From the NCBI GenBank assembly GCA_019747795.1, contig JAIEQK010000018.1, forward strand, positions 415 through 64,414: a stretch of 64,000 nucleotides of DNA. Direction: 5' to 3'. The notes beneath the pieces are model-generated. The model saw only the letters and a list, made by a program, of their open reading frames with translations, had not been told where the DNA came from and made no database searches. A program made the translations under genes and the position numbers. The stretch is from Gammaproteobacteria bacterium (lineage in GTDB: Bacteria > Pseudomonadota > Gammaproteobacteria > Ga0077536). Each line of letters starts with the position of its first letter. Within the stretch, counting starts at the first letter, position 1. Positions 26,015-63,470 of the stretch are shown here, in pieces.

Positions 26015-26959
26015 GTGAATATCTGGGGATCCGGGAGAACAAGTTCCGCAGATCCGCGCCGCCGGGCAGCGCCGGTGGCTTGGATTGTTCTGGCCATGAT
26101 GGCGCTGGTCTTCGCTCCGTCGCACGCTTTCGGGCTGATCGTTTTCGCCAGTGACGCCTATTACTTTGGTGACGTGGCGCAGTGGAATCCTCCGCATGAG
26201 CCCTTCGCCGCCAGTTACGACGGCTACTACTCCGCAGACCTTAAAGGCGGGGTGATCTCATACCGGCAGGAGTGGTACTCCGACAACCTGGCCCACGCAC
26301 AGGCCAACAGGGGCGAACTCGGGCTCAGCGCGGACTTCGACGGGTTCGGCTTTACTCTCGTCACGCACGATTTCTTCGCTGATGGACGACTCTTCGCCGG
26401 TACAGGAGCTGGAAGTGCCTTGGTCGCCAATTTCACCGTCTACTCCGACATCTACGACATGCTCAACGGCGCGGTGATCAACGACTTCAGGCAGAACTAT
26501 CACATCGAGCTTGGGGCCAACGACTTTGCCGAGTTCGACATTGCCATCGCTGCCCGAAAGCTGGTGGCTCTCGTCCCGCCCGCACCTTCCGCAGGAAATC
26601 CCTGGCAGGTTTCCAAGTATCGCCTCGCTGCAGGAGTAAACTTCGACTATGCCTACAGTGGGCCGAACGCCTCGTTTTCGTTTGATTTCCTGCAGGCCTA
26701 TGACCCGGCTCGACTGGACCGGCAAGGGCGGATGCTGAGCGGTGTGAGTGTATTCCCTTACTATCTAGCGCCTGAGCCGTCGGGCCTGGGGCTCCTGGCT
26801 GCCGGGTTGCTCGCGTTCGGCGCCACGCGGCGCCGAACGCCCCCTCTCTTCCTCGGCCGTGGCCGTCATCGAGACCGGACGCAAGCCGGGCTCTGTGACT
26901 ACTCGCGCGGCGCGAAACCCAACTCGGTCGGGAACCCCTCCAGATCCGGCGGCGGGTAA
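26015..26959 (+). CDS. Secreted protein with a PEP-CTERM sorting signal
   Basis: 314-aa ORF with a GTG start and a signal peptide (..VLAMMALVFAPSHAFG). Near the C-terminus: PEPSGLGLLAAGLLAFGATRRR, which is PEP, a TM helix and an Arg cluster. The ORF then continues for 45 more codons. Confidence 0.75.
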   Translation: MNIWGSGRTSSADPRRRAAPVAWIVLAMMALVFAPSHAFGLIVFASDAYYFGDVAQWNPPHEPFAASYDGYYSADLKGGVISYRQEWYSDNLAHAQANRGELGLSADFDGFGFTLVTHDFFADGRLFAGTGAGSALVANFTVYSDIYDMLNGAVINDFRQNYHIELGANDFAEFDIAIAARKLVALVPPAPSAGNPWQVSKYRLAAGVNFDYAYSGPNASFSFDFLQAYDPARLDRQGRMLSGVSVFPYYLAPEPSGLGLLAAGLLAFGATRRRTPPLFLGRGRHRDRTQAGLCDYSRGAKPNSVGNPSRSGGG

Positions 26960-28044
26960 TAGCGGCCACTGCCGAGCGCGTCGACGCGCGCGAAGAAATC
27001 GTCGTCGGCGGCCAGGCCCGTCGGGCCGAGCTCGCGCAGGTTCATGGCCTGGCGATAGATGTTCCAGGAATCCGGACGCAGGTCGGCGGCGAGCTGCAGA
27101 TGCACATCGCCCTCGGTTACATTGCCCGCCGCGCGCAGGTGATAGCCCAGTCGGAAATGGGCGTTGGCCAGGGCGACCTTGTCGTCCGGCAGCGCGAGAT
27201 GGGCCCGTGCCTGCTCCGGGGTGAAGGCGTGACGACTGCGTGCGCCGTGCTGGGCCCAGTCGCGCACCGCCTCGACGTAGGTCCGTTTGGCCTGGGCCGC
27301 GAGCGCGAGGGCACTCTCCGGCAGGGTTCCGCTCGCGCGGTCGCGCGAACGCCAGGCGTCATGGGAGCCCGCCGTTTCGCTGGGACGCACGATGCGGCCT
27401 TGTTCGTCGATCCAGACCGCCTGCGGCACGTTGACCATGTTGTAAAGGTCGGCCACGTGATGTTCGCGATCGATCAGCACCGGGTAGGTGGGCCGCGCGA
27501 GCTCTATCCACTCGCGGGCGGTCTCCGCGCCGCGCGACTCTTCCGCCACCGCGATGACGATGAAATCTTCCTGGGCCAGTTCTGCGTACAGTGCCTGCCA
27601 CACGGACAGGTCAAGACGGCAGCCTCACCAACTCGACCAGGTCGTGAGGAAGACGCGTTTGCCGCGGTAGTCGGACAGCGAGTGCAGGTTGCCGTCGATG
27701 TCGGGCAGCGTGAAGTCGGGGGCTTCCAGCGTGCAGAGGGCCCGTCCGCGATCGCTGGCGGCCGCGCCCAGCATCCAGGTCGAGCCGCTCGTGTCGTGCA
27801 GCACCGGGCGGCCCAGCAGCCGCCAGAAGGCAGCGAGGTTGACCGCGCCGTCGGCCAGGTAGCGCTCGGTTGCCGCGCGCGGCAAGGGCACACACATTTC
27901 GCCCTGGCAGAGGCCTTCCGGCTTCAAGGTCCAGCCGCTGGCGCGCGGCAGATCCGCGGCCGGCAGCCACAGGTCCTCGCCCGCGGCGCGCGCGGTGTCG
28001 ACGCTGCTCACCCCGGCGTCGGTAAGTATGGTGGTCATGGTCAT
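26899..28044 (-). CDS. ResA/TlpA-like thioredoxin-fold protein with in-frame TGA (27625-27627); candidate selenoprotein, alternatively a nonsense pseudogene
   Basis: Track ORFs 27625..28044 and 26899..27603 are in the same frame and separated only by TGA. Read-through gives APDFTLPDIDGNLHSLSDYRGKRVFLTTWSSW-U-GCRLDLSVWQALYAELAQEDFIVIAVA...VPQAVWIDEQGRIV. The stop sits at the nucleophilic Cys position of TlpA/ResA proteins. A bulged hairpin lies at 27594-27610, 14 nt downstream. Confidence 0.6.
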
Positions 28045-28317
28045 CGTCCTGGTTCTGGCAAAGAGTGGGCAGTCTAGCAGCCGGGCGCGTGAGGCCGCGT
28101 CGGACAGGACGTCAGCGCCTGGAACGTCGGGGCAGCCGCGATGGAATACTCAGACTGCCCCTGTGACCAGAAGCCTATACCAGGCGTGGCCGCCGAACGC
28201 CGCAACTGCACTCGGGTCAAGCTCGTGACCCTGTCCCAGGTGGAGATTTGCCTGCGTTGCCTGGCTGACGCTCGACCGTTGGCGAATCGATCCCCTTAAG
28301 CCGTTCCTGCGACCCTG

Positions 28318-28554
28318 TCAGTCCGCGAAATAGGCAGCCATGTTTTTCAGGTTGTACAACTTCGGGTAGTCGGCTTCCGGAATCTGACATCCCGTACGCT
28401 GACTCAGGGCGATGACCAGATTGAGGAAGTCCATGGAGTCCAGATCCAGGGCCTGACGCAGGTCGGAACTGTCATCCACTGCGCCGACATCGACCTCCGG
28501 GGCAATCTCGGCCAGCGCGTCGGCGACCATCGCGCGTATCTGCTGCTCGTTCAT
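28318..28554 (-). CDS. Stand-alone acyl/peptidyl carrier protein
   Basis: 78 aa with the phosphopantetheine attachment motif DLDSMDFLNLV. ATGA overlap with the upstream E2 gene. Confidence 0.85.
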   Translation of the reverse strand: MNEQQIRAMVADALAEIAPEVDVGAVDDSSDLRQALDLDSMDFLNLVIALSQRTGCQIPEADYPKLYNLKNMAAYFAD

Positions 28555-29750
28555 AGGGACTCCGGCGCATTGAGAAGACGTTCGATTTCGCTCAGAAACT
28601 GGCTTCCGAGGTGACCGTCGGAGACGCGATGATCCGCGGCCAGACTGACGCCAATGACCGGCTGTACCTGCACCTGGCCGGCCACTGCCCAGGGACGTTC
28701 GACAATCCTACCGAAACCGATCATGGCGACCTGGGGGGGATGAATGATGGGTTGCACCGTGTCGGCGCCGCGTTCGCCGAGACTCGTCACGGTGACGGTT
28801 GCGTCCACCATCTCCGACCTGCGCAGACCGCCTCTGCGTGCGCGTGCCACCACATCCCGCAGCGCTGACATAAGGGCATCGATGTTCAGCTTGTCGACGT
28901 CGTGAATCGCTGGCGCGACCAGGCCGCCGCCACGCAGGGCCACGGCCCAGCCGACGTGGATACCTTCACCAGCGCGAAAGGCGCCATCCTCATAGTAGCC
29001 ATTGAGGCTCGGTGCCTTGGTCAGCGCGAGACCGACGGCGCGTAACAAGAGTGCTGCTGGCAAGAGGCGCGCTTCGACGCTGCGGTTCTCGTTTGCGCGC
29101 CCGAGCCAATCGAGGGCGGCTGCCATCGAGATCTGCTGCCCCAGGTAGTAATGGGGTATCTCGCGCTTGGCGCGGGCCATGGCGGTGCCGATGACGCGGC
29201 GCATGGCCGCCGCGTCGAAGCCGCCGGCGCGTCTACCCCGGGACACGCCGCCGAGGCCGGCAAGGTCGGCCAGCAGGACGGCGCCACCGGGGCCGCTGCC
29301 GTGCAGCGTGGCGAGATCGAGGCCGAGGTCGGCGGCACGCTTGCGAGCCGCGGGGCTGGCGCGCTGATGGCCGGAGTCGGTTGCGCCCCGAGGCGCGCCC
29401 GCGTCGAGTCGAGCAGTGCTGACTGACGGCGGCTCCGGCCTGAACGCAGGTGCAGGAGCCACCGGCAAGGCTTGCGCCTTTGGAGTGTCAGGCGACGCCT
29501 GGTGTTCGCTTTCGCCCTTGGTGCGCAGCCGCGCCAGCACCGCGCCGACCGCCAGCTCCGTATCGAGGGGCGCGACCAGGGCCTCCACCACCGCGTCCTC
29601 GAATACTTCGATCTCGATCGCGCCCTTGTCGGTCTCCACCACGACGATCACGTCGCCACGACGCACCGCGTCTCCCGGTTTCACCAGCCACTCGACGACC
29701 CGCGCCGACTCCATGTCCGGCCCGAGGGAGGGCATCAGGAAATCGCTCAC
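28551..29750 (-). CDS. 2-oxoacid dehydrogenase E2 (dihydrolipoamide acyltransferase)
   Basis: 399 aa from GTG 29750 (GTGA overlap with the E1 beta stop). Lipoyl domain [13 protein letters not shown], subunit-binding domain ([25 protein letters not shown]) and catalytic DHRVSDGH. The 689-aa track ORF is read-through over E1 beta in another frame. Confidence 0.88.
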
Positions 29751-30727
29751 GCGGGACGTACCACCTGGCGCACGGCGGCCACGATGCGCTCGGCGTTGGG
29801 CAGCGCCGCCTGTTCGAGATGGGCGGCATAGGGCATCGGCACCTCCGCCGCGCACACTCGCGCGATCGGCGCATCGAGCTCGTAGAACACCGACTCCACC
29901 AGCCGGGCGCAGACCTCCGCGGCGAGGGAACCGCTCTTCCAGCCCTCGTCGACGATTACGCAGCGATGGGTGCGCGCGACCGACGCCGCCACCGTGCCCA
30001 TGTCCAGGGGACGCAGCACGCGCAGGTCGATCACTTCCGCCGAGATGCCGTCGCTCGCCAGGGTCTCGGCCGCCGCCAGTGCGCGGGGCAGGCTGCCGCC
30101 ATAGGTAATCACCGTGACGTCGTTGCCCGGCCGTCGGATCCTGGCGTGCGTGATGTCGACCCCCTCGAGGTGCTCGTCGACATCCCCCTCGACGTTGTAG
30201 AGCATGACGTGTTCGAACAGCAGCACCGGATTGGGATCGGCCAGCGCGGGCGCGAGCATGTGCCGCGCATCCTCGACAGTGGCGGGCGCGAGGATGCGCA
30301 GGCCCGGGATGTGCGCGTACCAGCCCTCGAGGGAATGGGAATGCTGGGCGGCGAGTTGCCGGCCGGCACCGGTCGCCATCCGGATCACCAGCGGCACCGC
30401 GAACTGTCCGCCGGACATGTGCGGAATGGTGGCCGCATTGTTCATGATCTGATCGAGCGCGAGCAGGCTGAAGTTGACGGTCATGATCTCGACTATCGGG
30501 CGCATGCCCGCCATGGCCGCGCCGATCCCGGCGCCGACGAATGCCGACTCCGACAGCGGGGTGTCGCGAATGCGTTCCGCGCCGAACTCCGCGCACAGGC
30601 CCTTGCTCACGGCGTAACACCCCCCGTAGGCGGCGATGTCCTCGCCCATCATGAACACGCGTGGGTCGGCCTGCAGCGCGGCGCGTATGGCCTGCTTGCA
30701 GGCTTCACGGTAGGTCATGGTCGTCAT
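29747..30727 (-). CDS. 2-oxoacid (pyruvate/acetoin-type) dehydrogenase E1 beta subunit
   Basis: 326 aa. MTYREA...[33 protein letters not shown] is typical of E1 beta. Confidence 0.9.
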
Positions 30728-31709
30728 GCCGGCACCTCGTCCATGACGACGAAGCGTTCCAGGTCCTCGAGCGCTTCGAGGTGGCCGGCTTCGGCGAACT
30801 CGATGGCCGCCGTCACCTCCGCTTCGGCATCGGCCTCGAGTCTTGCGACTTCATCGTCGAACGCCAGGTGGCTGTTCTCCAGCCAGGACTGAAAGCGCAG
30901 GATGGGACTGCGCTGCTTCCAGGCCTCGACCTCCGCTTTGTCACGATAAAGCTGGGCATCGAACATGGAGTGGGCGCGGGTACGATAGGTGCGGCATTCC
31001 AGGAACTGTGGTCCGCCACCGGCGCGCAGGGCGGCTACCGCGCGGCGCGCAGCCAGTTCCACCGCGATGACGTCGTTGCCGTCCACCGCTTCGCTCGCGA
31101 CGCCGTAGCTGGCCGCCTTGGCGTGAATGTCGGTGACGCTTTCGGCGTGTGCCAGCGCGGTCCCCATCGAGTAAAGATTGTTCTCGCACACGAACAGCAC
31201 GGGCAGTCGCCAGAGGGCGGCGAGATTCAGGCTCTCGTGGAATTCACCCTCGTCGACCGCGCCTTCGCCGAAGAAGCAGGCCGACACCGCGTCACGACCC
31301 TGCATCGTGTCGCCGAGCGCCGTGCCGACAGCCAGCGGCAGACCGCCGCCGACGATGGCGTTGCCGCCGATGAAGCGCAGCGCTCGGTCGAAGAAGTGCA
31401 TGGAACCGCCCCGACCACGGCAACACCCTTCGACCTTGCCGTAGAGTTCGGCCATCAGGCGGTTCATGGGGACGCCGCGGGCAATGGCCTGGCCGTGTTC
31501 GCGGTAGGTGGCAATCACCGCATCCTGCGGGGCAAGCGTTGCCATCACACCGACTGCGATCGCTTCCTCGCCGTCGTAGAGATGCAGGAAGCCACGAATC
31601 TTCTCCCGCTGGTAGAGTTCGGCGCAGCGTCGCTCGAACACGCGAATACGCACCATCTGCGCAAGCAAGCGCAACAGGTGCTGGTGGTCCAGGTGGAGTT
31701 TGTCGCCGC

Positions 31710-31713
<4 letters not shown>
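30724..31713 (-). CDS. 2-oxoacid (pyruvate/acetoin-type) dehydrogenase E1 alpha subunit, TPP-dependent
   Basis: 329 aa from ATG 31713. Contains [11 protein letters not shown] and the TPP motif [35 protein letters not shown] overlaps at both ends. Confidence 0.9.
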
Positions 31714-33509
<1,796 letters not shown>

Positions 33510-33699
33510 GCTCGCCTGACCTCGACACGGCGCGTGGCAAAGGTAATGAAGCGCATTACAGCGGTCGGGCACTCACCTCATCTTGATCCCGGTCAGCCGT
33601 CATCCCAGGGCGCGCGGCCGGCGGCCGCTCCGAGGCGGCGGGAACGCCCCGCACACACGGGTAATGGTCGGTTGGGATCGTCTGGCGGTCCTGGACACA

Positions 33700-34887
33700 T
33701 CACATGCCGCGGTGACGCCTGCGCCAGGCATCGAGGCGATCGAAAGCGCGGTCGATGTCTTGTTCACTGACGCAGAAGGCCATGCGCACGTGGTGCTCGC
33801 CAGCCGGCCCGAAGCCCGCGCCCGGCGTGACAGCGACACCCGCCTCGGCGAGCAGCCGCAGCGCGAATTCGCGGCTGTCGTGGTGGCTGGCCACGATACG
33901 GGGAAAGACATAGTAGGCGCCCTGCGGGCGGCAATAGGCGAACAGTTCGTGCATCGCGTCTAGACGCGCGCATATCTGGTCGCGACGCGCCGCGATCACG
34001 CGCGCGCATTCCTGGCGATGGGCCTGGCCCAGGCGCAGTGCTGCGAGCCCCGCCACCTGGCTCACACGCGGCGCGCAGATGAGTTCCGCGTCATGCACCT
34101 TGACGGCCTCGCGCTTCAATTCTTCGGGCAGGACCATGTAGCCCAGCCGCCAGCCCGTCATGGCATAGGCCTTGGAGAAGGTGAACATGTACACGACACG
34201 GTCACCCCATTCGGGTTCGCTGCTCAGATTGAACAACGGCGTGGACCGATCGTGGACGAAGTCCGAATAGGGGTCGTCCAGGAGGATGAGAAAGTCGTGT
34301 CGTCGCGCCAGCGCGGCGAGCGCCAGCAGATCGTCGCGAGCGAAGATCCGGCCTGTCGGGTTGGACGGGTTGACCAGAATGACAGCGCGCGTGCGCCTGT
34401 TCACCAGGGCAGGGAGTGCGTCCATGTCGAGTTGCCAATGGCGCGCTTCGTCCAGGCGCCAGTAGCGCGGCACGCCGCCGGCGAGTTCGATCTGCTGTAC
34501 GTGGGAGCAGAAGCCGGGGTCTGTGACGATCACCTCGTCGCCGGCTTCCAGCAGCACTTTCAGCATCGTGCTCATGGCCTGCATGTTGCCCGCGGTCACC
34601 AGGACCTGACGGTCCGGGTCCACCAGCACGCCGGTTGCCTCGTGGTGGCGCGCCGCGATCGCCGCGCGCAGTTCGACGATGCCGTCGGGCAACGAGTAGC
34701 GGCCGATATCCGGGTCCTGATCAAGTGCCTCGCTGACCGCCGCGCGTATCGGTGCGGGCGTCGCGAACGAGGGTACGCCCCAGGCGAGCGACACCGCGTC
34801 CGGCGTATGCGCGGCGCGCACCGCCATGTCCTTGATGACCGATGGTTCCATGCCCGCAACCGTGGCCGCGACCCGGCATCGATTCAT
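33700..34887 (-). CDS. Class I/II PLP-dependent aminotransferase
   Basis: 395 aa from ATG 34887, after GGAAGGAAG. Contains NPSNPTG and the PLP-lysine motif TFSKAYAMTGWRLGY. Confidence 0.85.
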   Translation of the reverse strand: MNRCRVAATVAGMEPSVIKDMAVRAAHTPDAVSLAWGVPSFATPAPIRAAVSEALDQDPDIGRYSLPDGIVELRAAIAARHHEATGVLVDPDRQVLVTAGNMQAMSTMLKVLLEAGDEVIVTDPGFCSHVQQIELAGGVPRYWRLDEARHWQLDMDALPALVNRRTRAVILVNPSNPTGRIFARDDLLALAALARRHDFLILLDDPYSDFVHDRSTPLFNLSSEPEWGDRVVYMFTFSKAYAMTGWRLGYMVLPEELKREAVKVHDAELICAPRVSQVAGLAALRLGQAHRQECARVIAARRDQICARLDAMHELFAYCRPQGAYYVFPRIVASHHDSREFALRLLAEAGVAVTPGAGFGPAGEHHVRMAFCVSEQDIDRAFDRLDAWRRRHRGM

Positions 34888-35153
34888 CTCGCTGCTTCCT
34901 TCCTGGCTTATGCCGCCACACACTCTAGGCCACTGCGGCGAGGAGAAGCTGTCGCCGGTCAAGCAGCGGGGGGACCCAGGTCCACGGTGGCCGAAGCCCG
35001 GAGGGAGTGCGTGGCGGGGCGGGTTCGGCCGAGGGAGGCGGCACCCCGGCGCGGCCTGGAGGTATCGACGGCGGGTCTGACCTTGATCAGCACCGCGCGG
35101 GGCGCGCTTGCCTACCGTGACCGACGTCATTTCCCCATACGGAGGTCTTCTCG

Positions 35154-36773
35154 ATGGCATTCCGAAAGATGACTTTTGGTTCCGCCGCGCGAGAGAAGGT
35201 CATGCGCGGTGCCACCGCGCTCGCCGACGCGGTGCGTGTCACGCTTGGGCCTCGGTCTAAATCGGTGCTGATCGAACGCAGCTTCGGCAAACCCATCGTG
35301 TGCAACGACGGCGTCACGATCGCCAAGGAAATCAATCTCGAGGATCGCGAGGAGAATCTCGGCGCGCAGATGGTGCGGGAAGCCGCTGAACGCACCGGCG
35401 ACGCGGTCGGCGACGGGACGAGCACCGCGACCGTGCTGGCCCACGCGATCTACGCCGACGGCGTGCGCAATGTCACGGCCGGGGCCAGCGCCATCGACTT
35501 GAAACGCGGGCTCGACGCCGCGCTCAAGGTCGCGGTCGAATCGCTGCGAGGATTGTCGCGGCCGGTCGCAACGCGCATCGAGCGTGCCCAGGTCGCGACC
35601 ATTTCGGCGCACAACGAGCCAGCGATAGGCGAGATCGTTGCCGAAGCGGTGGAGAAAGTGGGGCAGGAGGGCGTGATCACGGTGGAGGAGGCGAAGACCA
35701 CCGACACGCAGCTCGAGACGGTCGAAGGCATGCAGTTCGACCGGGGTTTCATCTCTCCGTACTTCGTCACCGACACGGAGAAGATGGAGGCGGTGCTGGA
35801 AGACCCGCTGATATTGATTTCCGATCGCAAGATCACTCACCTGAAAGACTTTCTGCCCCTGCTCGAGGAGATCGCCAAGGGCGCGCGCGCGTTGGTGGTC
35901 ATCGCCGAAGACATCGATGGCGAGGCGCTCGCGACGCTGGTGGTGAACCGCATCCGCGGTGTCTTCAGCTGCGTGGCGGTCAAGGCGCCCGGCTTCGGCG
36001 ACCGACGCAAGGCGATGCTGGGCGATATCGGCATCCTGACCGGGGCCACGGTGATCACCGAAGAACTCGGGCTGTCACTGGAGAAGTGCTCGCTCGCCGA
36101 TCTCGGTGGCGCGGAGCGGGTGGTGGTCAGCAAGGACCACACCACCATCATCGGCGGCAAGGGCGACAAGGCGACCATCGAAGGCCGGTGCAACGAACTG
36201 CGCCGGCAGATCAAGGACAGCAGTTCGGACTACGACCGGGAGAAGCTCGAGGAACGTCTCGCCAAGCTGGCGGGCGGCGTGGCCGTGATCCGGGTCGGTG
36301 CGCCCTCGGAAGCGGAGATGAAGGCGCGCAAGGATGCGTTCGACGACGCCATCGCTGCGACCCGGGCAGCGAGCGAGGAAGGCATCGTGCCCGGCGGCGG
36401 CCTCGCCCTGCTGCGCGCCATTCCGGCCGTCGAGAACGCCGCGGCCCAGGAGGAAGGCGATTTCCGCACGGGCATGCTCATTCTGCGCAATGCGCTCGAA
36501 TCGCCGGCGCGCACCATCGCGCAGAACTCCGGCGTCGACGGCGGCGTAGTGGTCAATGCCATGCGCCAGAGCCAGGGCGCCGAAGGGTATGACGCCTCCT
36601 GCGGCAAGTACCTCGACCTGATGGCGGCGGGTATCATCGATCCGACCAAGGTGGTGCGGGTCGCGTTGGAGAATGCCGTGTCGGTCGCGAGCGTGCTGTT
36701 GTTGACCGAGGCCACCATGGTCGAGGTCAAGGACCCCGCCGAGCATACGCGTCTCCCTGCAGACGGCATGTAG
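35154..36773 (+). CDS. groEL: Chaperonin GroEL/Cpn60 paralogue; no adjacent groES and no C-terminal GGM tail
   Basis: 539 aa with [38 protein letters not shown] and [10 protein letters not shown]. Ends ...RLPADGM. Confidence 0.9.
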
Positions 36774-39723: not shown

Positions 39724-40584
39724 TCACTCGGCCACGCCGAGCTTGATCGCCGCCTGCTGTGCGCGCCGCGCCTCCCCCGCGGCGAGGAGCGCCGCGCGGT
39801 TGTGTTCACCGACCTGCATATAGGCCTCCTTCCACGCACTCGAGGCGCTCCACACCTGCGGCGTGACGACGGTCGTGCGCGGTCCCCGCGCCTGTTCGAC
39901 GAGGTCGAACGCGCGGTCGGCGATGTCCCGCTGGCTGGCCTCGTCCCATGGACGGCCACAGGGATTGCCCAGGGGAAAGTCGGTGAACAGGAAACGCGGC
40001 ACGCCGCAGTGCTCGACGATGTCGCGCGCCGACCCCACCACCACGGTGGCGATCGCTGCGGCTTCGAGTGCGCGGGCGACCAGACTCACGGTCTGGTGAC
40101 AGACGGGTCAGAGCGGCACCAGCAGCGCCACATCCACCGCCTCGTCGCGGCACCCCGCGACGATCGCGGGCGCGTCGCGCAGGGCGGTATGGCGCTGCGA
40201 GTACTCGGTCGGGACGCAGTAGAAGTGGGGCGCGAGCCCACCGATGCGCCCGCTGGCAACCAAGCGACCAAGCTGCCGCACCGGAAGGTAGCTCTCGCGA
40301 TCGTCGGTGTGCGTGGCCTGCGTGTCCCACGCGAGGCCCTGCGTGTCGAGCCCCGCCGGGGGATGCGCGAGATCGCAGCGCGCCAGGCGCCGTCCGTGGC
40401 CCTGATGGCTCGCGTCGGGCATGGCCGTGGTGACCACGGTGACCCGACACTCGGCGAGTGGTTTGTCCAGCGCGTGGAAGGGCACGTCTTCATGATGCGC
40501 CCAGTGATACGGGCGCGCATAACCCTGCGCCGCGTAGAACTCGCGCGAGCGCGCCATGTAGAGAACCGGGTCCGTCGTGTCCAT
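39724..40584 (-). CDS. GrdB/PrdB-family (glycine/sarcosine/betaine/D-proline reductase protein B-like) protein with in-frame TGA (40108-40110); candidate selenoprotein
   Basis: ORF 39724..40089 and the 3' part of ORF 40108..41577 share a frame across one TGA. Read-through gives ...DEAVDVALLVPL-U-PVC-HQTVSLVARALEAAAIATVVV...FPLGNPCGRP, a UxxC motif at the position where I recall GrdB/PrdB carrying Sec. A 7-bp hairpin ACCAGAC-CGUGA-GUCUGGU (40079-40097) starts 10 nt after the UGA. Confidence 0.62.
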
Positions 40585-43498: not shown

Positions 43499-43654
43499 CC
43501 ATGCGCCCAAGGTAAATACCTTGGAAGGTCGATCGGCCGCCGCGCATGGCGCGGGTATGCTGCGGCGGCGATAGATTAGGGCGCAGCCCGGGAGCACGCC
43601 GCGCCTGGGTCGTGAGTCACCGCCAACCGCTCCACGGGTGACAGGCAAACGCAC

Positions 43655-45439
43655 ATGACCAGGTCGAGTCTCGACATCGAAGCGCTCCGCGCGAAGTACG
43701 CCCTGGAGCGGGCACGGCGGCTGCGCCCGGCCGGCACCGATCAATACAGGTATGCCGAGGGCGCGCTCGCGCCGCTGGAGGATGATCCCTACGCCCCGGC
43801 GCCGGCCCCGCGCCCACCGCTGGACGAGATTCTCGACGTGCTCGTGATCGGCGCGGGCTTGGGCGGCCTGCAGCTGGGCGCGGCGCTGCGCCGCGAGCGC
43901 ATCGACGACTTCCGTATCGTCGACGTGGCCGGCGACTTCGGCGGCACCTGGTACTGGAACCGTTACCCCGGGCTGCGCTGCGACGTCGAGTCCTACATCT
44001 ACCTGCCGTTCCTGGAGGACACCGGCTACGTACCGACGGAACGTTACGTGCGCGGACGCGAGATCCTCGCCTACTGCCAGCTGCTCGGCCGGCATTTCAG
44101 CCTGTACGAGCGCGCGCTGTTCCAGACCGGCGTGACCGGCATGCAGTGGGACGACGCCGCGGCGCGGTGGACCGTCACCACCGATCGCGGCGACACCTTC
44201 CGCGCGCGCTTCGTGACCACGCAGAGCGGCATCTTCAACCGCCCCCAGCTGCCCGGCATCGAGGGCCTCGAGACCTTCCGTGGCAAGATGTTCCACAGCG
44301 CGCGCTGGGACTACGAGTACACCGGCGGCGATACCCATGGCGATCTCCGTGGACTCGCCGACAAGCGCGTCGGCCTGCTCGGCACGGGCACCACCGCGCT
44401 GCAGGTCGTGCCCGAAGTCGCGAAGAGCGCCCGGCAGCTCATCGTATTCCAGCGTACGCCGACCGCGGTCGGCGTACGCGACAACGGTCCCACCGACAGC
44501 GCCTGGTTCGAGGCTTTGCCCCCGGGCTGGCAGCGGCAGCGCGAAGTGAGCTTCAACCAGCTCGCCAACGGCGAACGCGCGGAGTGCGCGGTGGATGACG
44601 GCTGGGCGCGCTACTTCAACCGCCTGATCGACGCGGTCGAGGCGCTGCCCGCGGACCAGCGCACGCCCACGGCCATCGGCGAGGCGCAGGAAGCGGCGGA
44701 CTTCGCCTACAACGAACTCGTGCGCGCGCGGGTCGATGCCGAGGTCCACGATCCGCGTACCGCCGCGCTGCTCAAGGCCTATTACCGCACGCTCTGCAAG
44801 CGCCCCGGCTTCAGCGACGACTACCTGCCGGTGTTCAACCGACCGAACGTCTCGCTGGTGGACGTCAGCGAGGGAATCGAGCGCCTCACGGCGCAGGCCG
44901 TGGTGGTGGACGGCAGGCATTACGAAGTCGACTGCCTGATCTTCTGCACGGGCTTCGCCCTCGGCACGACCTGGACCCACCAGGCGGGCTACGACGTGAT
45001 CGGACGCGACGGGCTGAAGCTGTCCGACAAGTGGGACCGCGGCCTGGTCACCTACCACGGGTTGTTCAGTCACGGCTTTCCCAACCTGTTCTTCATGGGC
45101 CTCACCCAGACCGGCACGACCATCAACGTGCCGCACATGCTGCGCGAACAGATCGAGCACCTGACCTACATCGTGCGGCGCTGCCTGGACGAGAAGCGCT
45201 CGCGCGTGGAAGCGACGGCGGCGGCGGAAGAGGACTGGCAGCGGCAGATCGCCGCCGTCAACGAACTGCGCCGGCCCTTCCAGGAGGCCTGCACGCCCGG
45301 CTATTTCAACGCCGAAGGGCGCGCCGAGGATCGGCGCAGCGCGATCGGCTCGGGGATCTACTTCCCCTCCACCGACTTCTTCCGCATGTGGGCGGCGTGG
45401 CGAGCGCAGGGCGATTTCGCCGGACTCACCGTCACCTGA
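43655..45439 (+). CDS. Baeyer-Villiger (type I flavin-containing) monooxygenase
   Basis: 594 aa with FAD motif VIGAGLGG, GGTWYWNRYPGLRCD, BVMO fingerprint FRGKMFHSARW and a second Rossmann motif LGTGTTALQ. Confidence 0.88.
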   Translation: MTRSSLDIEALRAKYALERARRLRPAGTDQYRYAEGALAPLEDDPYAPAPAPRPPLDEILDVLVIGAGLGGLQLGAALRRERIDDFRIVDVAGDFGGTWYWNRYPGLRCDVESYIYLPFLEDTGYVPTERYVRGREILAYCQLLGRHFSLYERALFQTGVTGMQWDDAAARWTVTTDRGDTFRARFVTTQSGIFNRPQLPGIEGLETFRGKMFHSARWDYEYTGGDTHGDLRGLADKRVGLLGTGTTALQVVPEVAKSARQLIVFQRTPTAVGVRDNGPTDSAWFEALPPGWQRQREVSFNQLANGERAECAVDDGWARYFNRLIDAVEALPADQRTPTAIGEAQEAADFAYNELVRARVDAEVHDPRTAALLKAYYRTLCKRPGFSDDYLPVFNRPNVSLVDVSEGIERLTAQAVVVDGRHYEVDCLIFCTGFALGTTWTHQAGYDVIGRDGLKLSDKWDRGLVTYHGLFSHGFPNLFFMGLTQTGTTINVPHMLREQIEHLTYIVRRCLDEKRSRVEATAAAEEDWQRQIAAVNELRRPFQEACTPGYFNAEGRAEDRRSAIGSGIYFPSTDFFRMWAAWRAQGDFAGLTVT

Positions 45440-50102: not shown

Positions 50103-50999
50103 ACCCTGCCCGCCAAGGGCGGCCACCTTGCTCGCAGAGCCGGGACCGCAGGTCACGAAGCCGCGGCTCAACACCGGCGCGCCGTGCACGTCCCGCACGG
50201 CGAAGGAGAGTGCGTCCGGACCGCACTCCACCGCGTGCAGCGTGAGCGTGGACGGCAGACGCACCATGCCGCTCATGCGGCACCCGAGGCGGGTCACGCG
50301 CGCCGGCGTGCCTTGCAGGCGCGTCGCCACCACGGTCGAGAGGGCGAGCGCGAGCGTCGCCGTGCCGTGCAGGATGATGTCGGGCAGGCCGGCGGCGAGC
50401 GCGTGCGCGAGATCGCTGTGTATCGGGTTCCAGATGCGCGCGCACTCGGTGTAGACGTGGGCGAGGCCGGCCGGCACCTCGATGGCGTGGCCGGGGCCGT
50501 CGGGCGCCTGGTCCGCGGCGACGGGCCAGGCCGGCGCCGCTTCCAGCGCGCGCGGCGCGCCGTCGATGGCGACGCCACGGTAGAGCGTGCCCTGGTAGGT
50601 GCGGGTGACGAGTTCGCCCGCCGCGTCGCGCGTGTCGATGCGCTTCACCAGGTAGGCGCCCGGACGGCGCGCCTCCAGGGCGATGGCGGTCGCCGTCACC
50701 TGCAGGCGTTCGCCGGCGCGCAGTGGACGCAGCAGGTGGAGATCGTGTTCGGCATGCACCGCGGCGGCCTTCTCGGCCGCGGTCATGGCGCCGGCCTCGG
50801 TGCTCTCGCGCAGCGCGACGATGGCGTCCCACTCGAGGCACACGGGAAACAGCGGGTGATGGGCGAGCGGCTGCCTGGTGTCGAAGTAACAGGGCGCGCG
50901 TTCACCCAGCGCCGCCGCATAGGCCATCAGCCACCGCGCATCGGCGGTGTAGTGGAACGGGCCGCTGACGGCGCCGACGAGGCTCGCGGGCAAGGGCAT
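50082..50999 (-). CDS. Double hot-dog MaoC-like (R)-hydratase/dehydratase family protein
   Basis: 305 aa with two hot-dog-like halves. The second half has ...IHSD..A...G.P..ILHG.. Function is inferred from the fold only. Confidence 0.6.
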   Translation of the reverse strand: MPLPASLVGAVSGPFHYTADARWLMAYAAALGERAPCYFDTRQPLAHHPLFPVCLEWDAIVALRESTEAGAMTAAEKAAAVHAEHDLHLLRPLRAGERLQVTATAIALEARRPGAYLVKRIDTRDAAGELVTRTYQGTLYRGVAIDGAPRALEAAPAWPVAADQAPDGPGHAIEVPAGLAHVYTECARIWNPIHSDLAHALAAGLPDIILHGTATLALALSTVVATRLQGTPARVTRLGCRMSGMVRLPSTLTLHAVECGPDALSFAVRDVHGAPVLSRGFVTCGPGSASKVAALGGQGSAIAPT

Positions 51000-51113
51000 G
51001 GCACGAGTCTACACAGCGCCGCGCGCCCGGTCATCGCGCGCCGCGGCGGGGGCTGCGGCCTCGCGCGCGGCACGGCACAATGGCGCCGCCCTTCGCCACC
51101 CAGGAACGGAACC

Positions 51114-52391
51114 ATGGAAGTCATCCCGACGGCGCTCGTCGCGCCGCTGTTCAACCCCGCCACCTTCGCCGTGCGCGGCGCGGTCGACAGTCTGCTCACC
51201 GAGATCCGCCGCGACTATCCCCTGGCGCAGGCCGAGGTGCCCGGTTTCGATCCGCACTGGATAGTGAGTCGCCACGCGGACATCCAGGAGGTCTCCCGCC
51301 AGAACGAGCTGTTCCACAGCGCCGACCGCTCCGCGACCCTGATTCCGCAGATGGGCGAGGTGCTGGTGCAGCAGTTCACCGGCGGCGACTACAACCTGTT
51401 CCGCTCACTGGTGCAGCTGGACGGCGCCGAGCACAAGGCGCATCGCCGCGTGCTGTTCCAGGCGCTCGCGTCGCACTCGGTCGCGCAGCTCACCGAGAGC
51501 ATGCGCGCCACGGCCCGCGCCCAGCTCGCGACGCTCCGCGAGCGCGGCGGCGAGCTCGACTGGTCGAAGGAGATAGCGACGCCCTATCCCCTGCAGGTGG
51601 TGCTCGATGCGATCGGCGTGCCGCGCGTCGATCATCCGCGCATGCTGCGGCTCACCCAGTGGCTGTTCAGCTGGGCCGATCCGGACCTGCGTCGCCCCGG
51701 CAGCGACCCGAGCGATCCCGAGCAGCAGGCGCGCACCTGGAAAATCGTCCTTGAGGAGTTCGACGAGTATTTCTCCACGCTCATCGAGGAACGGCGGCGC
51801 ACGCCGCAGGACGATCTCGCCACCTTGATCGCCAACGCCGAGATCGACGGGGAGCCCATGGCCCACAGCCGCGCGATCTCCTACTTCGCGATCCTATCCA
51901 CCGCCGGCCACGACTCCACGGCCCACACCACCGCGACCGCGATGTGGGTGCTGGCGGAGAACCCGGACCTGTTCGCCGCGCTGAAGGCCGATGCGGCGCT
52001 GATCCCCAACTTCGTCGAAGAGGCCATCCGCTGGACGACCCCGGTCAAGCACTTCGTGCGCCACGCCACGGCGGACTGCACGCTGGCCGGCAAGGTCATC
52101 GCCAAGGGCGATCGCCTGTACCTCTCCTACCCGTCCGGCAACCGTGACGAGGCGGAGTTCGACGAGCCCTTCCGCTTCCGGCTCGATCGCGCGCGCAATC
52201 GCCACGTCGGCTTCGGCTACGGCGGTCACGTGTGCCTGGGCCAGCATCTCGCACGTCTCGAGATGCGTACCCTATGGGAGGAACTGCTGCCGGTCCTCGA
52301 AGCCGTGGAGATGACCGGCGAGGGGGAACTCATCGCCTCCGAGTTCGTGTCGGGGCCGAAGAAAGTGCCGGTGCGCTGCCGGCTCGCCTGA
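51114..52391 (+). CDS. Cytochrome P450
   Basis: 425 aa from ATG 51114. I-helix AGHDSTAHT, ExxR, and heme loop FGYGGHVCLGQHLA. Confidence 0.9.
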   Translation: MEVIPTALVAPLFNPATFAVRGAVDSLLTEIRRDYPLAQAEVPGFDPHWIVSRHADIQEVSRQNELFHSADRSATLIPQMGEVLVQQFTGGDYNLFRSLVQLDGAEHKAHRRVLFQALASHSVAQLTESMRATARAQLATLRERGGELDWSKEIATPYPLQVVLDAIGVPRVDHPRMLRLTQWLFSWADPDLRRPGSDPSDPEQQARTWKIVLEEFDEYFSTLIEERRRTPQDDLATLIANAEIDGEPMAHSRAISYFAILSTAGHDSTAHTTATAMWVLAENPDLFAALKADAALIPNFVEEAIRWTTPVKHFVRHATADCTLAGKVIAKGDRLYLSYPSGNRDEAEFDEPFRFRLDRARNRHVGFGYGGHVCLGQHLARLEMRTLWEELLPVLEAVEMTGEGELIASEFVSGPKKVPVRCRLA

Positions 52392-52521
52392 GACTGGCGC
52401 GCGCCGGCTTGCCTGCGCGCCTCCGCCCTCCCACAATCCCGAGCGACGACGCTGCCGATCCGCGGCGTCATGGCCGCCGCGGCGGCTCACCATGGAGCCA
52501 CGACTGGGGAGGTCGCCAACC

Positions 52522-53823
52522 ATGTCCACGCCAGTACACGCGCAGGATGCCGCGCTCGCATCCGCAGACTTGCTCACCGACTTCGATCACCTCGAACCGC
52601 ACATCGGCGCGGACGGCACGCCCCTCGCCTACTACGAGGCCCTGCGCGACGCGGCCGCCGAGAGCGGCCACTACGTCCACTGGTGCGAACGCTACGACGG
52701 CTTCTGGGCGGTGTTCGGCTACGAGGAATACACCGAGATCACACGCCACCCCGAGCGCTTCTCCAACACCGAGCCGACCTTTCCACGCTACGCGCTCGGC
52801 GAACCACTGATGATCGCCGGGCAGGACGATCCCGAGCATCGCTTCGCGCGCGCGCTGGTCAATTCCTCCTTCGGACCGCACGGCGTGCAGGTCTACGAGC
52901 CGATGCTGCGTGAGAACGTGAACCTGCTCATCGACGGCATCATTGCCGACGGCGCGGTGGACATCGCGCAGCTCATCGCGCGGCCCATTCCGGCCATCCT
53001 GACCGCGCTCCTGATGGGTCTGCCGGCGGAGCTTGGCCCGAAGTTCATGGCCTGGTGCCGGGCGATCTCCGAAGGGCACATCCTCGATCCGGAAGGTTCG
53101 AAGCCGCTGATCGAGGAGATGTACGCCTACTTCGACGACACCATCGCGCGGCGCAAGCAGGACGGCGGCGCGGACATCCTGTCGACGGTGATCAACGCCG
53201 AAGTCGACGGCCGCCGCTTCACCCATCGGGAACTGCGCGGCTTCTGCACGCTGCTCATGCTGGGCGGCATCGACAACACCAAGAACCTGGTCGGCACGCT
53301 GCTGTGGCGACTCGCCTGGGACATCGACCTGCGCACCCGGCTGTTGCGCGATCGCGCGCTGATCCCGCGCGCCATCCAGGAGTGCCTGCGCTACTACTCG
53401 CCGGCCTTCACCGCGCGCCTGCTGTTGGAGGACACGAGCGTCGGCGGCGTGACGATGAAGGCAGGACAGATGCTCCTGCTGTGCAACCCCATCGCGAATC
53501 GCGATCGCCGCGCGTTCGATCATCCGGACAGCTTCATCCTCGATCGGCCACCCAATCGCCACGTCGGCCTCGGGCTCGGCGTGCATCGCTGCCTCGGCGC
53601 CCATCTCGTGGCGCTGGAAGCGCGTGTGATCGTCGAGGAACTGCTCGATCGCCTGCCGCATTTCCGTCTCGACCCGGCTCGCCCGAGCCGGTGGTGGCCG
53701 GGCTTCGTGTCGGGCATGGGCAATGTGCCGGTGCTGTTCGAACCGCAGGCGCCCAGACGCGACGTGCGCGGCAACGCGGGCGTCGAGACGTGGCTCGCCA
53801 GCGCGCGGGCGTTGCCCGCATGA
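52522..53823 (+). CDS. Cytochrome P450 (second, divergent copy)
   Basis: 433 aa from ATG 52522, after GGAGG. I-helix LMLGGIDNT, and heme loop LGLGVHRCLGAHLV. Confidence 0.9.
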   Translation: MSTPVHAQDAALASADLLTDFDHLEPHIGADGTPLAYYEALRDAAAESGHYVHWCERYDGFWAVFGYEEYTEITRHPERFSNTEPTFPRYALGEPLMIAGQDDPEHRFARALVNSSFGPHGVQVYEPMLRENVNLLIDGIIADGAVDIAQLIARPIPAILTALLMGLPAELGPKFMAWCRAISEGHILDPEGSKPLIEEMYAYFDDTIARRKQDGGADILSTVINAEVDGRRFTHRELRGFCTLLMLGGIDNTKNLVGTLLWRLAWDIDLRTRLLRDRALIPRAIQECLRYYSPAFTARLLLEDTSVGGVTMKAGQMLLLCNPIANRDRRAFDHPDSFILDRPPNRHVGLGLGVHRCLGAHLVALEARVIVEELLDRLPHFRLDPARPSRWWPGFVSGMGNVPVLFEPQAPRRDVRGNAGVETWLASARALPA

Positions 53824-59003: not shown

Positions 59004-59111
59004 CCCGCGGCGCGGCGCGCGCTGCCCGGGCGGGCAGCGCACCATTTGCCTCGCGCGCGGCGGGAATGGAACAATCCCGGTCCCATTCCGCTGCGCGCAG
59101 AGGTGCTCTCC

Positions 59112-60113
59112 ATGAAGGTCGACGGCATGATCGGCTGGAATCTCGACACGGTCGGCGACGAGGCCGCCAAGCTCGAGAACCTGGGCTATACCGGCGCGAT
59201 GTCGGTCGAGACCGCCCACGATCCCTTCTTCCCGCTGGTGGTCGCCGCGCAGCGCACCACGCGGGTCGACCTCATGACCTCCATCGCCGTGGCTTTCGCC
59301 CGCACGCCCATGGTGCTGGCCAACATCGGCCACGACCTGAACGCGCTCGCGCGTGGCCGCTTCGTGCTCGGTCTGGGTTCGCAGATCAAGCCGCACATCA
59401 CCAAGCGCTTCAGCATGCCCTGGTCGGAACCCGCCGCGCGCATGCGCGAGTTCGTGCTGGCGATGCGCGCCATCTGGGCCACCTGGCACGAGGGCAAGCC
59501 GCTGACCTTCGTCGGCAAGTATTACGCCCACACCCTGATGACGCCGATGTTCACCCCGACCAACAACGAGTACGGCGCGCCGCGCGTGTTCCTCGCGGCG
59601 GTCGGTCCGCGCATGACAGAGGTCGCCGGTGAAGTGTGCGACGGCGTCATCATCCACGCCTTCACCACCGAGAACTACCTGCGCGAGACCACCCTGCCGG
59701 CCCTCGAGCGCGGGCTGGCCAAGGCCGGTCGCGCGCGGGCGGACTTCGAGGTGAGCTACCCGGTGTTCGTGGTCACCGGCCGTGACGAGCACGAGTTCGC
59801 GGCCTCGAAGAAGAACATCTGCAAGCAGATCGCCTTCTACGGCTCGACCCCGGCCTACCGACCGGTGCTGGAGAGCATCGGCGCGGGCGAACTGCAGGAT
59901 GAACTCAATCGCATGTCCAAGCAGGGTCGCTGGGACGACATGGGCCTGCTTATCGACGACAAGCTGCTGGCCGCCTTCGCCGTGATCGGCGAGGTGGACA
60001 GCCTGCCCGCGCAGATCAAGGCGCGCTGCGCCGGCCTGGTCGACCGCGTGTCGGCCGCCTACGCGCATCTGGGCGAAGAAGACCAGCGCAAACTGGTGAC
60101 GGGCTTGCTGTGA
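59112..60113 (+). CDS. Luciferase-like (LLM class) flavin/F420-dependent oxidoreductase
   Basis: 333 aa from ATG 59112. TIM-barrel LLM pattern (...RFVLGLGSQ...; ...YGSTPAYRPVLE...). Confidence 0.78.
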   Translation: MKVDGMIGWNLDTVGDEAAKLENLGYTGAMSVETAHDPFFPLVVAAQRTTRVDLMTSIAVAFARTPMVLANIGHDLNALARGRFVLGLGSQIKPHITKRFSMPWSEPAARMREFVLAMRAIWATWHEGKPLTFVGKYYAHTLMTPMFTPTNNEYGAPRVFLAAVGPRMTEVAGEVCDGVIIHAFTTENYLRETTLPALERGLAKAGRARADFEVSYPVFVVTGRDEHEFAASKKNICKQIAFYGSTPAYRPVLESIGAGELQDELNRMSKQGRWDDMGLLIDDKLLAAFAVIGEVDSLPAQIKARCAGLVDRVSAAYAHLGEEDQRKLVTGLL

Positions 60114-61912: not shown

Positions 61913-62173
61913 ATGGACAACGACCCCCTGGTGGTCGCGCTGCTGACCGACATTCGCGATCAGCAGCAGCGCCTGCTCGCCGAGTACACGCGCGTCGCCA
62001 ACGAGTCCCTGGCCCTGCAGCGCCAGGCCTTCGAGGCCCAGCAGAAGGCAATTGCGCAGCAGCATGTCTCGGTCGAGGCCCAGCTACGCTCTGCGCGCCT
62101 CTATCGTCGCGTGCTGCTGGTGACCGCCGCGACAGCGCTCGGCATCGTCCTTCTGCTGGCGCGGCTCGGCTGA
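61913..62173 (+). CDS. Small hypothetical protein: coiled-coil region plus a C-terminal TM helix
   Basis: 86 aa. ATG lies 6 nt after GAAGGAG, with strong GC3 bias. C-terminus VLLVTAATALGIVLLLA. Confidence 0.55.
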   Translation: MDNDPLVVALLTDIRDQQQRLLAEYTRVANESLALQRQAFEAQQKAIAQQHVSVEAQLRSARLYRRVLLVTAATALGIVLLLARLG

Positions 62174-62279
62174 GACCACGCCGAGAGGTCCTGCAACCAC
62201 GGCCGGCATTGACGCCCTGCGCGCGGCTGGCGGACGATGGCGGCGCCGACCGTCGTTCAACATCAGGAAGAGTCCCGCG

Positions 62280-63470
62280 ATGAGCGCAGCCCTGCTCGAA
62301 CAACATCTCGCCAGCGTGGCGCGCCTCGCGCCGCTGATCGCCACGCATGCCGCCGACGCCGAACGCGAGCGGCGCCTGCCGCAGCCCATCGTGCGCGCCA
62401 TGACCGAGGCCGGGCTGTTCCGGCTCTACGTGCCGCATTCGCTCGGCGGCTCGCAGCTCTCACCGCTCGAATTCGCCGAGATCCTGGAAGCCCTGTCGCG
62501 CATCGACGGTTCGACCGGCTGGTGCGCCTTCATCGGCAACGTCAACACGCTGTTCACCACGCCCATGCAGCCGGCGGCGATCGAGCGCATCTTCCTCGAT
62601 CAGCCCGGCACGGTGACCGGCTCGGCCTTCTTTCCCTTCGGTCGCGCGGTGCGGACCGAGGGGGGCTTCAGGCTCTCCGGACGCTGGCAGTTCGCGAGCG
62701 GCTGCCAGCATTGCCGCTGGTACTTCGTGCTGTGCCAGGAGTACGAGGGCGGCGAGCCGCAGTTCAGCGCGAGCGGCGTGCCGCTGACCCGCGCCTGCTT
62801 CCTGCCGCTCGAGGCCTACACCATCGAAGAGACCTGGGACGTGTCGGGCCTGTCGGGCTCGGGCAGCCACGACGTGATCCTGGACGACGTGTTCGTGCCG
62901 CGGGACATGACCTGGGTGTTCGGCCGCTCCATGCGTCCCGATCCCAAGCACTTCGGCGCGCCGGTCTATCGCCACCCGCCCTACGCGACCGGCGTGATGC
63001 AGGCCGGCTTCATCGGCATCGGCATCGCGCAAGGTGCCATCGACCATGCGATGGAAATCGCGCAGAGCAAGCTCGGCGTCGGCACCAGCACGCCGCTGCG
63101 CGAGCGGCCGACCTTTCACATCGGTCTCGCCGACGCCGTGGCCCTGGTGCGCGGTTCGCGCGCCTGGCTGAAGGAGGCGCTGGCGGAGTTCGAGCAGGCG
63201 GTGATGGCGGGTCAGGAAGTCTCCTACGAGTCGCGCGCCAACATGATGCTGGCCGCGACCAAGGCGATGCACAACAGCGCACGCGCCACCGACATCGTCT
63301 ACAGCCTGTGCGGCGCCAACGCCAACTACCGCAAGAACCCGCTGCAGCGCGCGCTGCGCGACGTGCACGCCGCGACCCAGCACTTCGCGGTGGCCATCAA
63401 CCAGGTGGAGTCCGCCGGTCGCATGATGGTGGGACTGGAACCGCTGGCGCCGCCGGTGATCCTGGGGTGA
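62280..63470 (+). CDS. Acyl-CoA dehydrogenase-fold protein (flavin-dependent monooxygenase type, HsaA/DszC/SfnB-like)
   Basis: 396 aa. ...RRLPQPIVRAMTEAGLFRLYVPHSLGG...SG.WQFASG... The subfamily call is from memory of the fold and was not verified. Confidence 0.65.
   Translation: MSAALLEQHLASVARLAPLIATHAADAERERRLPQPIVRAMTEAGLFRLYVPHSLGGSQLSPLEFAEILEALSRIDGSTGWCAFIGNVNTLFTTPMQPAAIERIFLDQPGTVTGSAFFPFGRAVRTEGGFRLSGRWQFASGCQHCRWYFVLCQEYEGGEPQFSASGVPLTRACFLPLEAYTIEETWDVSGLSGSGSHDVILDDVFVPRDMTWVFGRSMRPDPKHFGAPVYRHPPYATGVMQAGFIGIGIAQGAIDHAMEIAQSKLGVGTSTPLRERPTFHIGLADAVALVRGSRAWLKEALAEFEQAVMAGQEVSYESRANMMLAATKAMHNSARATDIVYSLCGANANYRKNPLQRALRDVHAATQHFAVAINQVESAGRMMVGLEPLAPPVILG

Follow-up and report, generated by a model that had tools for sequence, protein, structure and literature searches.

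A single minus-strand gene at positions 26899-28044 of the stretch of DNA analysed here (64,000 nucleotides of a gammaproteobacterial assembly, GCA_019747795.1, contig JAIEQK010000018.1; hereafter the window) is, we conclude with high confidence, a selenocysteine-decoding member of the UGC-containing, or WAxxUGC, family of ResA-like (TlpA/Prx-like) proteins. The complete gene runs from an ATG at 28042-28044 to a TAG at 26899-26901, and its 140th codon, at 27625-27627, is an in-frame UGA that is very probably read as selenocysteine (Sec). This codon occupies the place that the nucleophilic Cys has in the active site of a thioredoxin-fold domain, an assignment drawn from conservation of TGA or Cys at that column and from alignment to solved structures of the ResA/TlpA type. 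Two codons further on, TGC at 27619-27621 encodes Cys142, the presumed resolving Cys of a U-G-C centre; it is invariant in homologue alignments, and the codon is TGC or TGT (TGY) in all 80 related loci described below.

The gene appears in two pieces when open reading frames (ORFs) are called. The first-pass annotation of this DNA, made from the letters alone, had noted two minus-strand ORFs in the same frame that are parted only by the TGA at 27625-27627, and translation bears this out: ORFs 27625-28044 (ATG start, 139 amino acids) and 26899-27603 share one frame with that TGA as the sole intervening stop, and a single-frame translation from 28044 to 26899 gives 381 codons with one internal stop before the terminator. 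The read-through product around this codon is ..GKRVFLTTWSSW-*-GCRLDLSVWQALY.., containing the motif TTWSSW-U-GCRLDLSVWQ. G+C content at third codon positions (GC3) is 0.86 in the upstream half and 0.82 in the downstream half, a bias that in both halves is that of real genes in a window of 68% G+C. Neither half contains an additional stop or a frameshift. TGA is the commonest true stop codon among the other genes of the window, and the genetic code is therefore not reassigned. In GenBank, the product of this gene is a 234-residue 'TlpA family protein disulfide reductase' from a gammaproteobacterial metagenome-assembled genome (MAG), which is 100% identical to the C-terminal piece and covers that piece only; its annotated GTG start at 27603 falls within a hairpin at 27594-27610 that is described below. 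The closer database relatives (67-100% identity) are likewise all C-terminal fragments, of 220-236 amino acids, which indicates that gene callers cut these genes at the same point. Positions 26899-28044 are one gene, not two, with a 381-residue product.

Comparison with homologues shows what the TGA replaces. It had been proposed that the stop takes the place of the nucleophilic Cys that follows the conserved Trp in this family, and the column does align to the first Cys of the W-C-x-x-C motif in solved structures. In all 15 aligned full-length homologues (360-390 amino acids, about 50% identical) the residue at this column is Cys, in the context W-A-S-W-C-G-C-R. Across the homologues, W136, G141 and C142 of the motif W136-S-S-W-U140-G-C142 are invariant or nearly so. 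At the level of DNA, genomes were scanned, one for each GTDB species, and the 80 best-matching related loci were compared; the codon at the Sec column is TGA in 79 of these and TGC in one, and TGC and TGT forms of the family occur at the same column. The 80 loci span Gamma-, Alpha- and Betaproteobacteria, Rokubacteria/Methylomirabilota, Binatia, Acidobacteria-like and other MAGs, and include a few isolates (Reyranella, Vineibacter, Quisquiliibacterium). The column is thus occupied by Cys or by TGA in homologues, one of the points on which the first-pass annotation had suggested the idea could be checked.

The second such point was whether the downstream half has accumulated lesions or escaped selection, and it has done neither. 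The ratio of nonsynonymous to synonymous substitution rates (dN/dS) was estimated between the window gene and nine relatives, over 125 codons before the TGA and 241 codons after it. Values are 0.16-0.34 before the TGA (for eight relatives, the synonymous rate being saturated for locus L007) and 0.13-0.24 after it, so that both sides are under purifying selection. Taken together, conservation of the TGA column, the Cys homologues, the matching fragments in public databases and this selection cannot be explained by a pseudogene or by a pair of genes.

A few of the compared loci have peculiarities of their own. The gammaproteobacterial MAG locus L008 has an extra in-frame TGA 43 codons past the Sec codon, from position 4812 of that locus, where the others have Arg (CGA); either the gene is a true pseudogene there or the assembly is in error. 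Two contigs that carry this bacterial gene have unexpected labels, L025 being labelled 'Nitrosotalea sp.' (an archaeon) and L075 a 'Klebsiella pneumoniae' MAG. The L075 gene is 68% identical to the gammaproteobacterial clade of the window gene and the L025 gene is like the Rokubacteria forms, and both contigs are probably mis-binned or mislabelled.

The TGA is followed, within the coding sequence, by a hairpin that resembles a bacterial Sec insertion sequence (SECIS) element. In the window gene this hairpin lies at 27594-27610 on the minus strand, with arms at 27605-27610 and 27594-27599 and a 5-nt apical loop, CGUGU, at 27600-27604; the stem begins 14 nt after the UGA (14-15 nt in the family), and the RNA encodes part of the peptide D-L-S-V-W-Q-A. 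Folded as a single sequence it has a 6-bp stem, a 5-nt loop and an energy of -8.5 kcal/mol. A gap-free alignment of 72 nt around the TGA of 80 TGA-containing genes was analysed with RNAalifold, which returned one helix, pairing columns 24-29 with 35-40 around a 5-nt loop, equivalent to 27605-27610 and 27594-27599 of the window. Across the 80 genes 96.9% of the cells of this helix are paired, compared with 32-66% in a sliding control, and the outer two pairs alternate between CG, UA and UG with 12 and 3 double (compensatory) changes. The loop is CGUGU in 72 of the 80 sequences; its G is invariant and its U is present in more than 90%, giving a family loop of N-G-U-N-U. A small apical loop containing G has been described for bacterial SECIS elements (PMC1088965).

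This hairpin had first been drawn with a bulged U and a GUGU loop. The hairpin itself, its invariant loop G and its conserved, covarying stem were confirmed by the alignment, while the bulge was not: the bulged register pairs 95.6% of cells against 96.9% for a simple stem that includes a U-G wobble, and the supposed bulge base is a C that simply pairs in 45 of the 80 genes. The bulged U is therefore not conserved.

The structure is tied to the UGA codon. As a control, metagenomes were scanned for the motif with TGY in place of TGA, which yielded 107 distinct Cys-encoding genes. All five core pairs are intact in 80 of 80 TGA genes and in 24 of the 107 Cys genes (Fisher p = 2e-31). If only Cys genes with an unchanged peptide, L-[S/P]-V-W-Q, are counted, the figure is 9 of 15. 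G is the last base of the Leu codon in all 80 TGA genes and in 9 of these 15 Cys genes (p = 6e-6). The peptide D-L-[S/P]-V-W-Q is itself near-frozen in the Sec forms and varied in the Cys forms (DLSGWRK, DVPKWEP, DLGLWQE). Since both stem and peptide are conserved in the UGA forms and not in the Cys forms, the RNA structure constrains synonymous sites and amino acids only where the codon is UGA, which is what a functional SECIS element predicts. By analogy with known elements, the hairpin at 27594-27610 would be the SECIS recognized by SelB.

The family to which the protein belongs is already curated. With Cys written for Sec, the product matches the NCBIfam equivalog model NF041054 (WAxxUGC_long, 'ResA-like WAxxUGC motif-containing protein') with 304.7 bits and E 9.5e-91, residues 27-366 aligning on profile positions 8-352 of 354. 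The family name put forward in the first-pass annotation is that of this model and was correct. Models of related families score far lower: ResA 70.1 bits against a cut-off of 170, TlpA 39.6 against 230 and DsbE 17 against 123, with StoA also far below its cut-off. Pfam places AhpC-TSA (68 bits) and Redoxin (46.5 bits) over residues 107-220, and the AhpC-TSA match reflects the shared redoxin fold only. Membership of the peroxiredoxins (AhpC/TSA, PrxQ/BCP) was considered and rejected; the protein is without the motif P-x-x-x-T/S-x-x-C, having L133-T-T-W-S-S-W-U140 with no Pro at -7, and the BCP/PrxQ models, whose cut-offs are 140 and 260, give 19.6 and 18.7 bits. In the literature, the selenoproteome from Global Ocean Sampling (GOS) data includes a 'Prx-like (UGC-containing)' group (pfam00578, motif UGC, 46 sequences, commoner in non-marine samples) and also lists 'Proline reductase PrdB' (UxxC) (PMC2398784). 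The UGC-containing family is given as a selenoprotein family in two sources (PMC2398784, PMC13188914). We equate these published UGC families with NF041054 by motif, Pfam/CDD assignment and name rather than by the example sequences of the papers; a literature search on the name 'WAxxUGC' found no paper.

The window contains another gene with a TGA of this kind, as had been pointed out when the TGA was first noticed. This gene (39724-40584, minus strand) encodes a PrdB-like, or 'glycine reductase'-like, protein in which a UGA at 40108-40110 gives LVPL-U-PVC, in the wider context ..LLVPL-U-PVCHQ.., and the observation of a TGA in a UxxC position stands, with Cys found at this column in homologues. 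Ten full-length homologues have PL-C-PVCHQT, and the nearest relative, 89% identical, is a fragmentary sequence whose end falls at the UGA column. The match to the PrdB model TIGR04483 is weak (E 9.6e-17, 61 bits, far under the cut-off of 300), a sequence search of the PDB with the product gave chance matches only, and the gene is flanked by genes for an Fpg glycosylase and an acyl-CoA dehydrogenase, with no adjacent prd or grd genes. About 11 nt after the UGA lies a hairpin of 7 bp (40079-40097) with the loop CGUGA (-10.2 kcal/mol, z = -2.3). This loop is close to the CGUGU of the first gene, as expected if one SelB reads both, and the second pairing of TGA with Cys, together with the similar loop, is counted in favour of a selenoprotein at 26899-28044 and, indirectly, of Sec decoding in this organism. 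Folding in 61-66-nt windows around the two UGAs is no better than for shuffled sequences. Other pairs of abutting ORFs that share a frame (14690/14691, 50102/50103, 59003/59004 and 3869/3870) were considered as selenoproteins and rejected, being ordinary neighbours (LptD/SurA; oxidase and P450, etc.).

Several observations weigh against a Sec-decoding gene at 26899-28044 or temper the case for it. No selA, selB or selD was found in the 64-kb window when about 40 of its ORFs were compared with NCBIfam, and ARAGORN found no tRNA in it and hence no tRNA-Sec. The hairpin by itself is no more stable than shuffled sequence (z = 0.10 in a 61-nt context and -1.2 for the hairpin), and its significance comes from the cross-locus comparison only. 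No Rfam family matches the hairpin, either in a gathering-threshold scan of the window or in a permissive scan of 27400-27800. The NF041054 cut-off of 300 is exceeded by only 4.7 bits by a query in which Cys was written for Sec, and the motif is W-S-x-x-U-G-C, not W-A-x-x-U-G-C. Ser occupies the second motif position in the gammaproteobacterial clade of the window gene, comprising 11 loci (L001-L010 and L075), and Ala in all other loci; the change of Ala to Ser is conservative, and the letters in the family name serve as a mnemonic, not as a rule. The full-length structural model considered below is of a Cys homologue with 56% identity and not of the window protein. Finally, there is no conserved neighbour: in three annotated contexts and an all-against-all BLAST of the flanking ORFs of 81 loci, no family occurs in more than 12 loci. 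Gene context gives no clue to function or substrate.

Of the alternatives to a Sec-decoding gene, the one that survives best is read-through of the UGA without selenium, in which a near-cognate Trp or Cys tRNA, or Cys-tRNASec at low selenium, would leave Cys or Trp at residue 140. It would sit comfortably with a window that holds no Sec machinery genes and with a family whose Cys forms are evidently functional. It does not account for a conserved structure after the UGA with a small G-containing apical loop, as in bacterial SECIS elements (PMC1088965), or for the loss of that structure where the codon is TGY; the second gene of the window has the same arrangement, and the family is listed among selenoprotein families (PMC2398784, PMC13188914). 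We consider selenium-free read-through very unlikely. It is more improbable still that the two ORFs are translationally coupled genes, a 139-residue protein ending at the TGA followed by a 234-residue 'TlpA family' protein starting from the GTG at 27603. Gene callers make exactly this split in many assemblies, but it would divide both the W-x-x-W-[C/U]-G-C active site and the initial beta-alpha unit of the thioredoxin fold, the Cys-type homologues are single chains of 360-380 amino acids, the NF041054 profile was covered from 8 to 352 across the TGA, and the GTG 'start' sits inside the conserved hairpin. A pseudogene, in which TGC or TGT mutated to TGA in an ordinary Cys-type ResA-like gene to leave two decaying ORFs, might be suspected from the GenBank annotation of a 234-residue C-terminal piece only and from the further downstream in-frame TGA of the relative L008, but is effectively refuted by TGA at the same column in 79 of 80 loci of distant lineages, by the absence of any further stop or frameshift in either half with dN/dS of 0.13-0.34 on both sides, and by a hairpin under synonymous-site constraint in TGA forms only.

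The Sec-decoding protein would be a compact molecule of three parts, as seen in the AlphaFold model of the 56%-identical Cys homologue (predicted local distance difference test, pLDDT, 94.7; predicted template modelling score 0.92). An N-terminal alpha/beta domain of about 100 amino acids is encoded at 27745-28044 on the minus strand. It carries C46 (27907-27909) and C51 (27892-27894) in a GLCxxxxCxP hairpin, and both are invariant in 68 sequences; the pair may be a second site for redox chemistry or for a metal. When the window sequence of this domain is modelled by itself, the pLDDT is 93.6. A fold search against solved structures returned nothing significant for it, the top matches being usher N-domains and beta-grasp ferredoxins at E >=0.6, and Pfam has no family for either the N-terminal domain or the C-terminal part (for the latter the only match is TPR_2, E 0.48). 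The thioredoxin-fold domain of the ResA/TlpA/DsbE-like redoxin type spans residues 107-221 (27382-27726, minus strand) and was identified by Pfam, by sequence matches in the PDB and by Foldseek, in which this core of the homologue model matches ResA at E 7.5e-12, and ResA, DsbE and TlpA at about 1e-11 with target TM-scores of 0.76-0.79. A conserved N-V-P-Q loop, of which N205-V206-P207 are invariant, corresponds in the alignment to the G-V-P-E loop of 3kcm, a homologue of solved structure, and its Pro is presumed from the fold to be cis. Alignment to solved proteins of the ResA/TlpA type needs a one-residue gap, the centre being U-G-C with CxC spacing and not W-C-x-x-C, which agrees with the unusual spacing remarked on in the first-pass annotation. 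The C-terminal domain, of about 155 amino acids (26902-27372, minus strand), is all-helical and weakly TPR-like, with model helices above a pLDDT of 90 bar one loop; the TPR Pfam families PF13428 and PF07719 are recorded for some homologues, and the domain could serve as a module for docking a partner or substrate.

No hydrophobic segment or signal peptide was found in the protein; the maximum Kyte-Doolittle mean over 19 residues is 1.03, and there is no basic N-terminal region. ResA, TlpA and DsbE differ from it in this respect. From the lack of such segments we infer that the protein is probably cytoplasmic.

A scheme for how the gene may be expressed and its product may act can be put together from these features. 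The hairpin at 27594-27610 would act as a bacterial SECIS, recruiting SelB-GTP-Sec-tRNASec to the ribosome in the standard bacterial mechanism, whereupon UGA codon 140 would be read as Sec rather than as a stop. As nucleophile, Sec140 would attack a disulfide or another oxidized substrate, and Cys142 would then resolve it through a selenenylsulfide within the U-G-C centre, strained because it spans one residue fewer than CxxC does. The N-terminal pair Cys46/Cys51 might act as an electron relay or bind substrate or metal, while the TPR-like helical C-terminal domain might dock a partner. A further reading is offered tentatively, as a possibility on the doubtful side. In it the family would be more than generic 'TlpA-like' reductases: a cytoplasmic enzyme of three domains, with one redox centre at U-G-C, another at CxxxxC and TPR-like docking, would carry out a specific, as yet unrecognized reaction favoured by selenium. 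Consistent with a reaction that benefits from selenium, 79 of the 80 GTDB loci that match best have the Sec form.

Elsewhere in the window, an upstream cluster on the same strand (28318-35199, minus) begins 270 nt from the selenoprotein gene with an acyl carrier protein gene (28318-28554) and includes genes for a pyruvate dehydrogenase E1 beta-like protein (29750-30850), an acetate-CoA ligase-like protein (31713-33572) and an aminotransferase dependent on pyridoxal phosphate (33703-35199). This cluster is not conserved in relatives. Neither a sigma-70-like promoter nor an intrinsic terminator was found in 26500-28700. On the opposite strand, the ORF at 26015-26959 (plus) converges on the selenoprotein gene and shares 61 nt with its 3' end; this ORF encodes a PEP-CTERM-like sorting signal (PEPSGLGLLAAGLLAFGATRRR) followed by about 45 further residues, has a lower GC3 (0.72) and has no NCBIfam match at E <= 1e-25. 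The right-hand third of the window (42455-63470) has many genes of oxidative metabolism, among them those for a Baeyer-Villiger-type monooxygenase (PtlE-like, 43616-45436), cytochrome P450s (50103-52388 and 52315-53820), an F420-dependent oxidoreductase of the luciferase-like monooxygenase (LLM) type (59004-60110) and an HsaA-like oxygenase (62124-63467), which suggests a locus for the degradation of hydrocarbons, terpenoids or steroids.

The consequences of these findings lie mainly in annotation. For this gene, as for dozens of relatives, GenBank and metagenome gene callers give only a truncated 'TlpA family' piece of 230-234 residues, whereas the real product is very probably a 381-residue selenoprotein, and a corrected annotation alters what is inferred about the selenoproteome of this uncultured gammaproteobacterial lineage and about its dependence on selenium. 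In kind the biology is not new, as UGC-containing TlpA/Prx-like selenoproteins have been listed since 2008 and a curated NCBIfam model exists; the finding is the recognition of a member of a known family and the repair of its annotation. The modest gains are a comparative demonstration that the SECIS-like hairpin of this widespread family is kept by synonymous and amino-acid constraint in UGA forms only, and the observation that Sec forms predominate among the closest genomes. A hairpin that dictates the peptide D-L-[S/P]-V-W-Q clearly illustrates how an RNA signal can constrain the sequence of a protein.

Comparison with known systems highlights both similarities and differences. The second gene of the window resembles the PrdB-like and stand-alone 'glycine reductase' UxxC selenoproteins (pfam07355 group, PMC2398784) in its UxxC motif, its Cys homologues and its post-UGA hairpin, but differs from true PrdB in matching it only weakly and in having no neighbouring prd or grd genes. 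The protein encoded at 26899-28044 shares with ResA of Bacillus subtilis, TlpA of Bradyrhizobium and DsbE/CcmG the thioredoxin fold, the Trp before the nucleophile and the V-P loop. These are extracytoplasmic CxxC thiol-disulfide oxidoreductases, however, whereas the window protein has U-G-C and neither signal peptide nor membrane anchor, possesses additional N-terminal (CxxxxC) and C-terminal helical domains, and shows no link to cytochrome-maturation genes. The SECIS of Escherichia coli fdhF is a hairpin bound by SelB just 3' of the UGA, with an 11-nt spacer. Like elements of this type, the hairpin at 27594-27610 is a stem-loop within the coding sequence shortly after the UGA and has a small apical loop with a conserved G-U; it differs in its spacer of 14-15 nt and its 5-nt loop N-G-U-N-U, and in having no conserved bulged U and no Rfam match. 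The closest likeness is to NF041054 itself, with which the protein shares the U-G-C motif after Trp, the pfam00578/TlpA-like core and the long architecture, in a family where Sec and Cys forms coexist; the difference is that this clade has Ser instead of Ala as the second residue of the motif.

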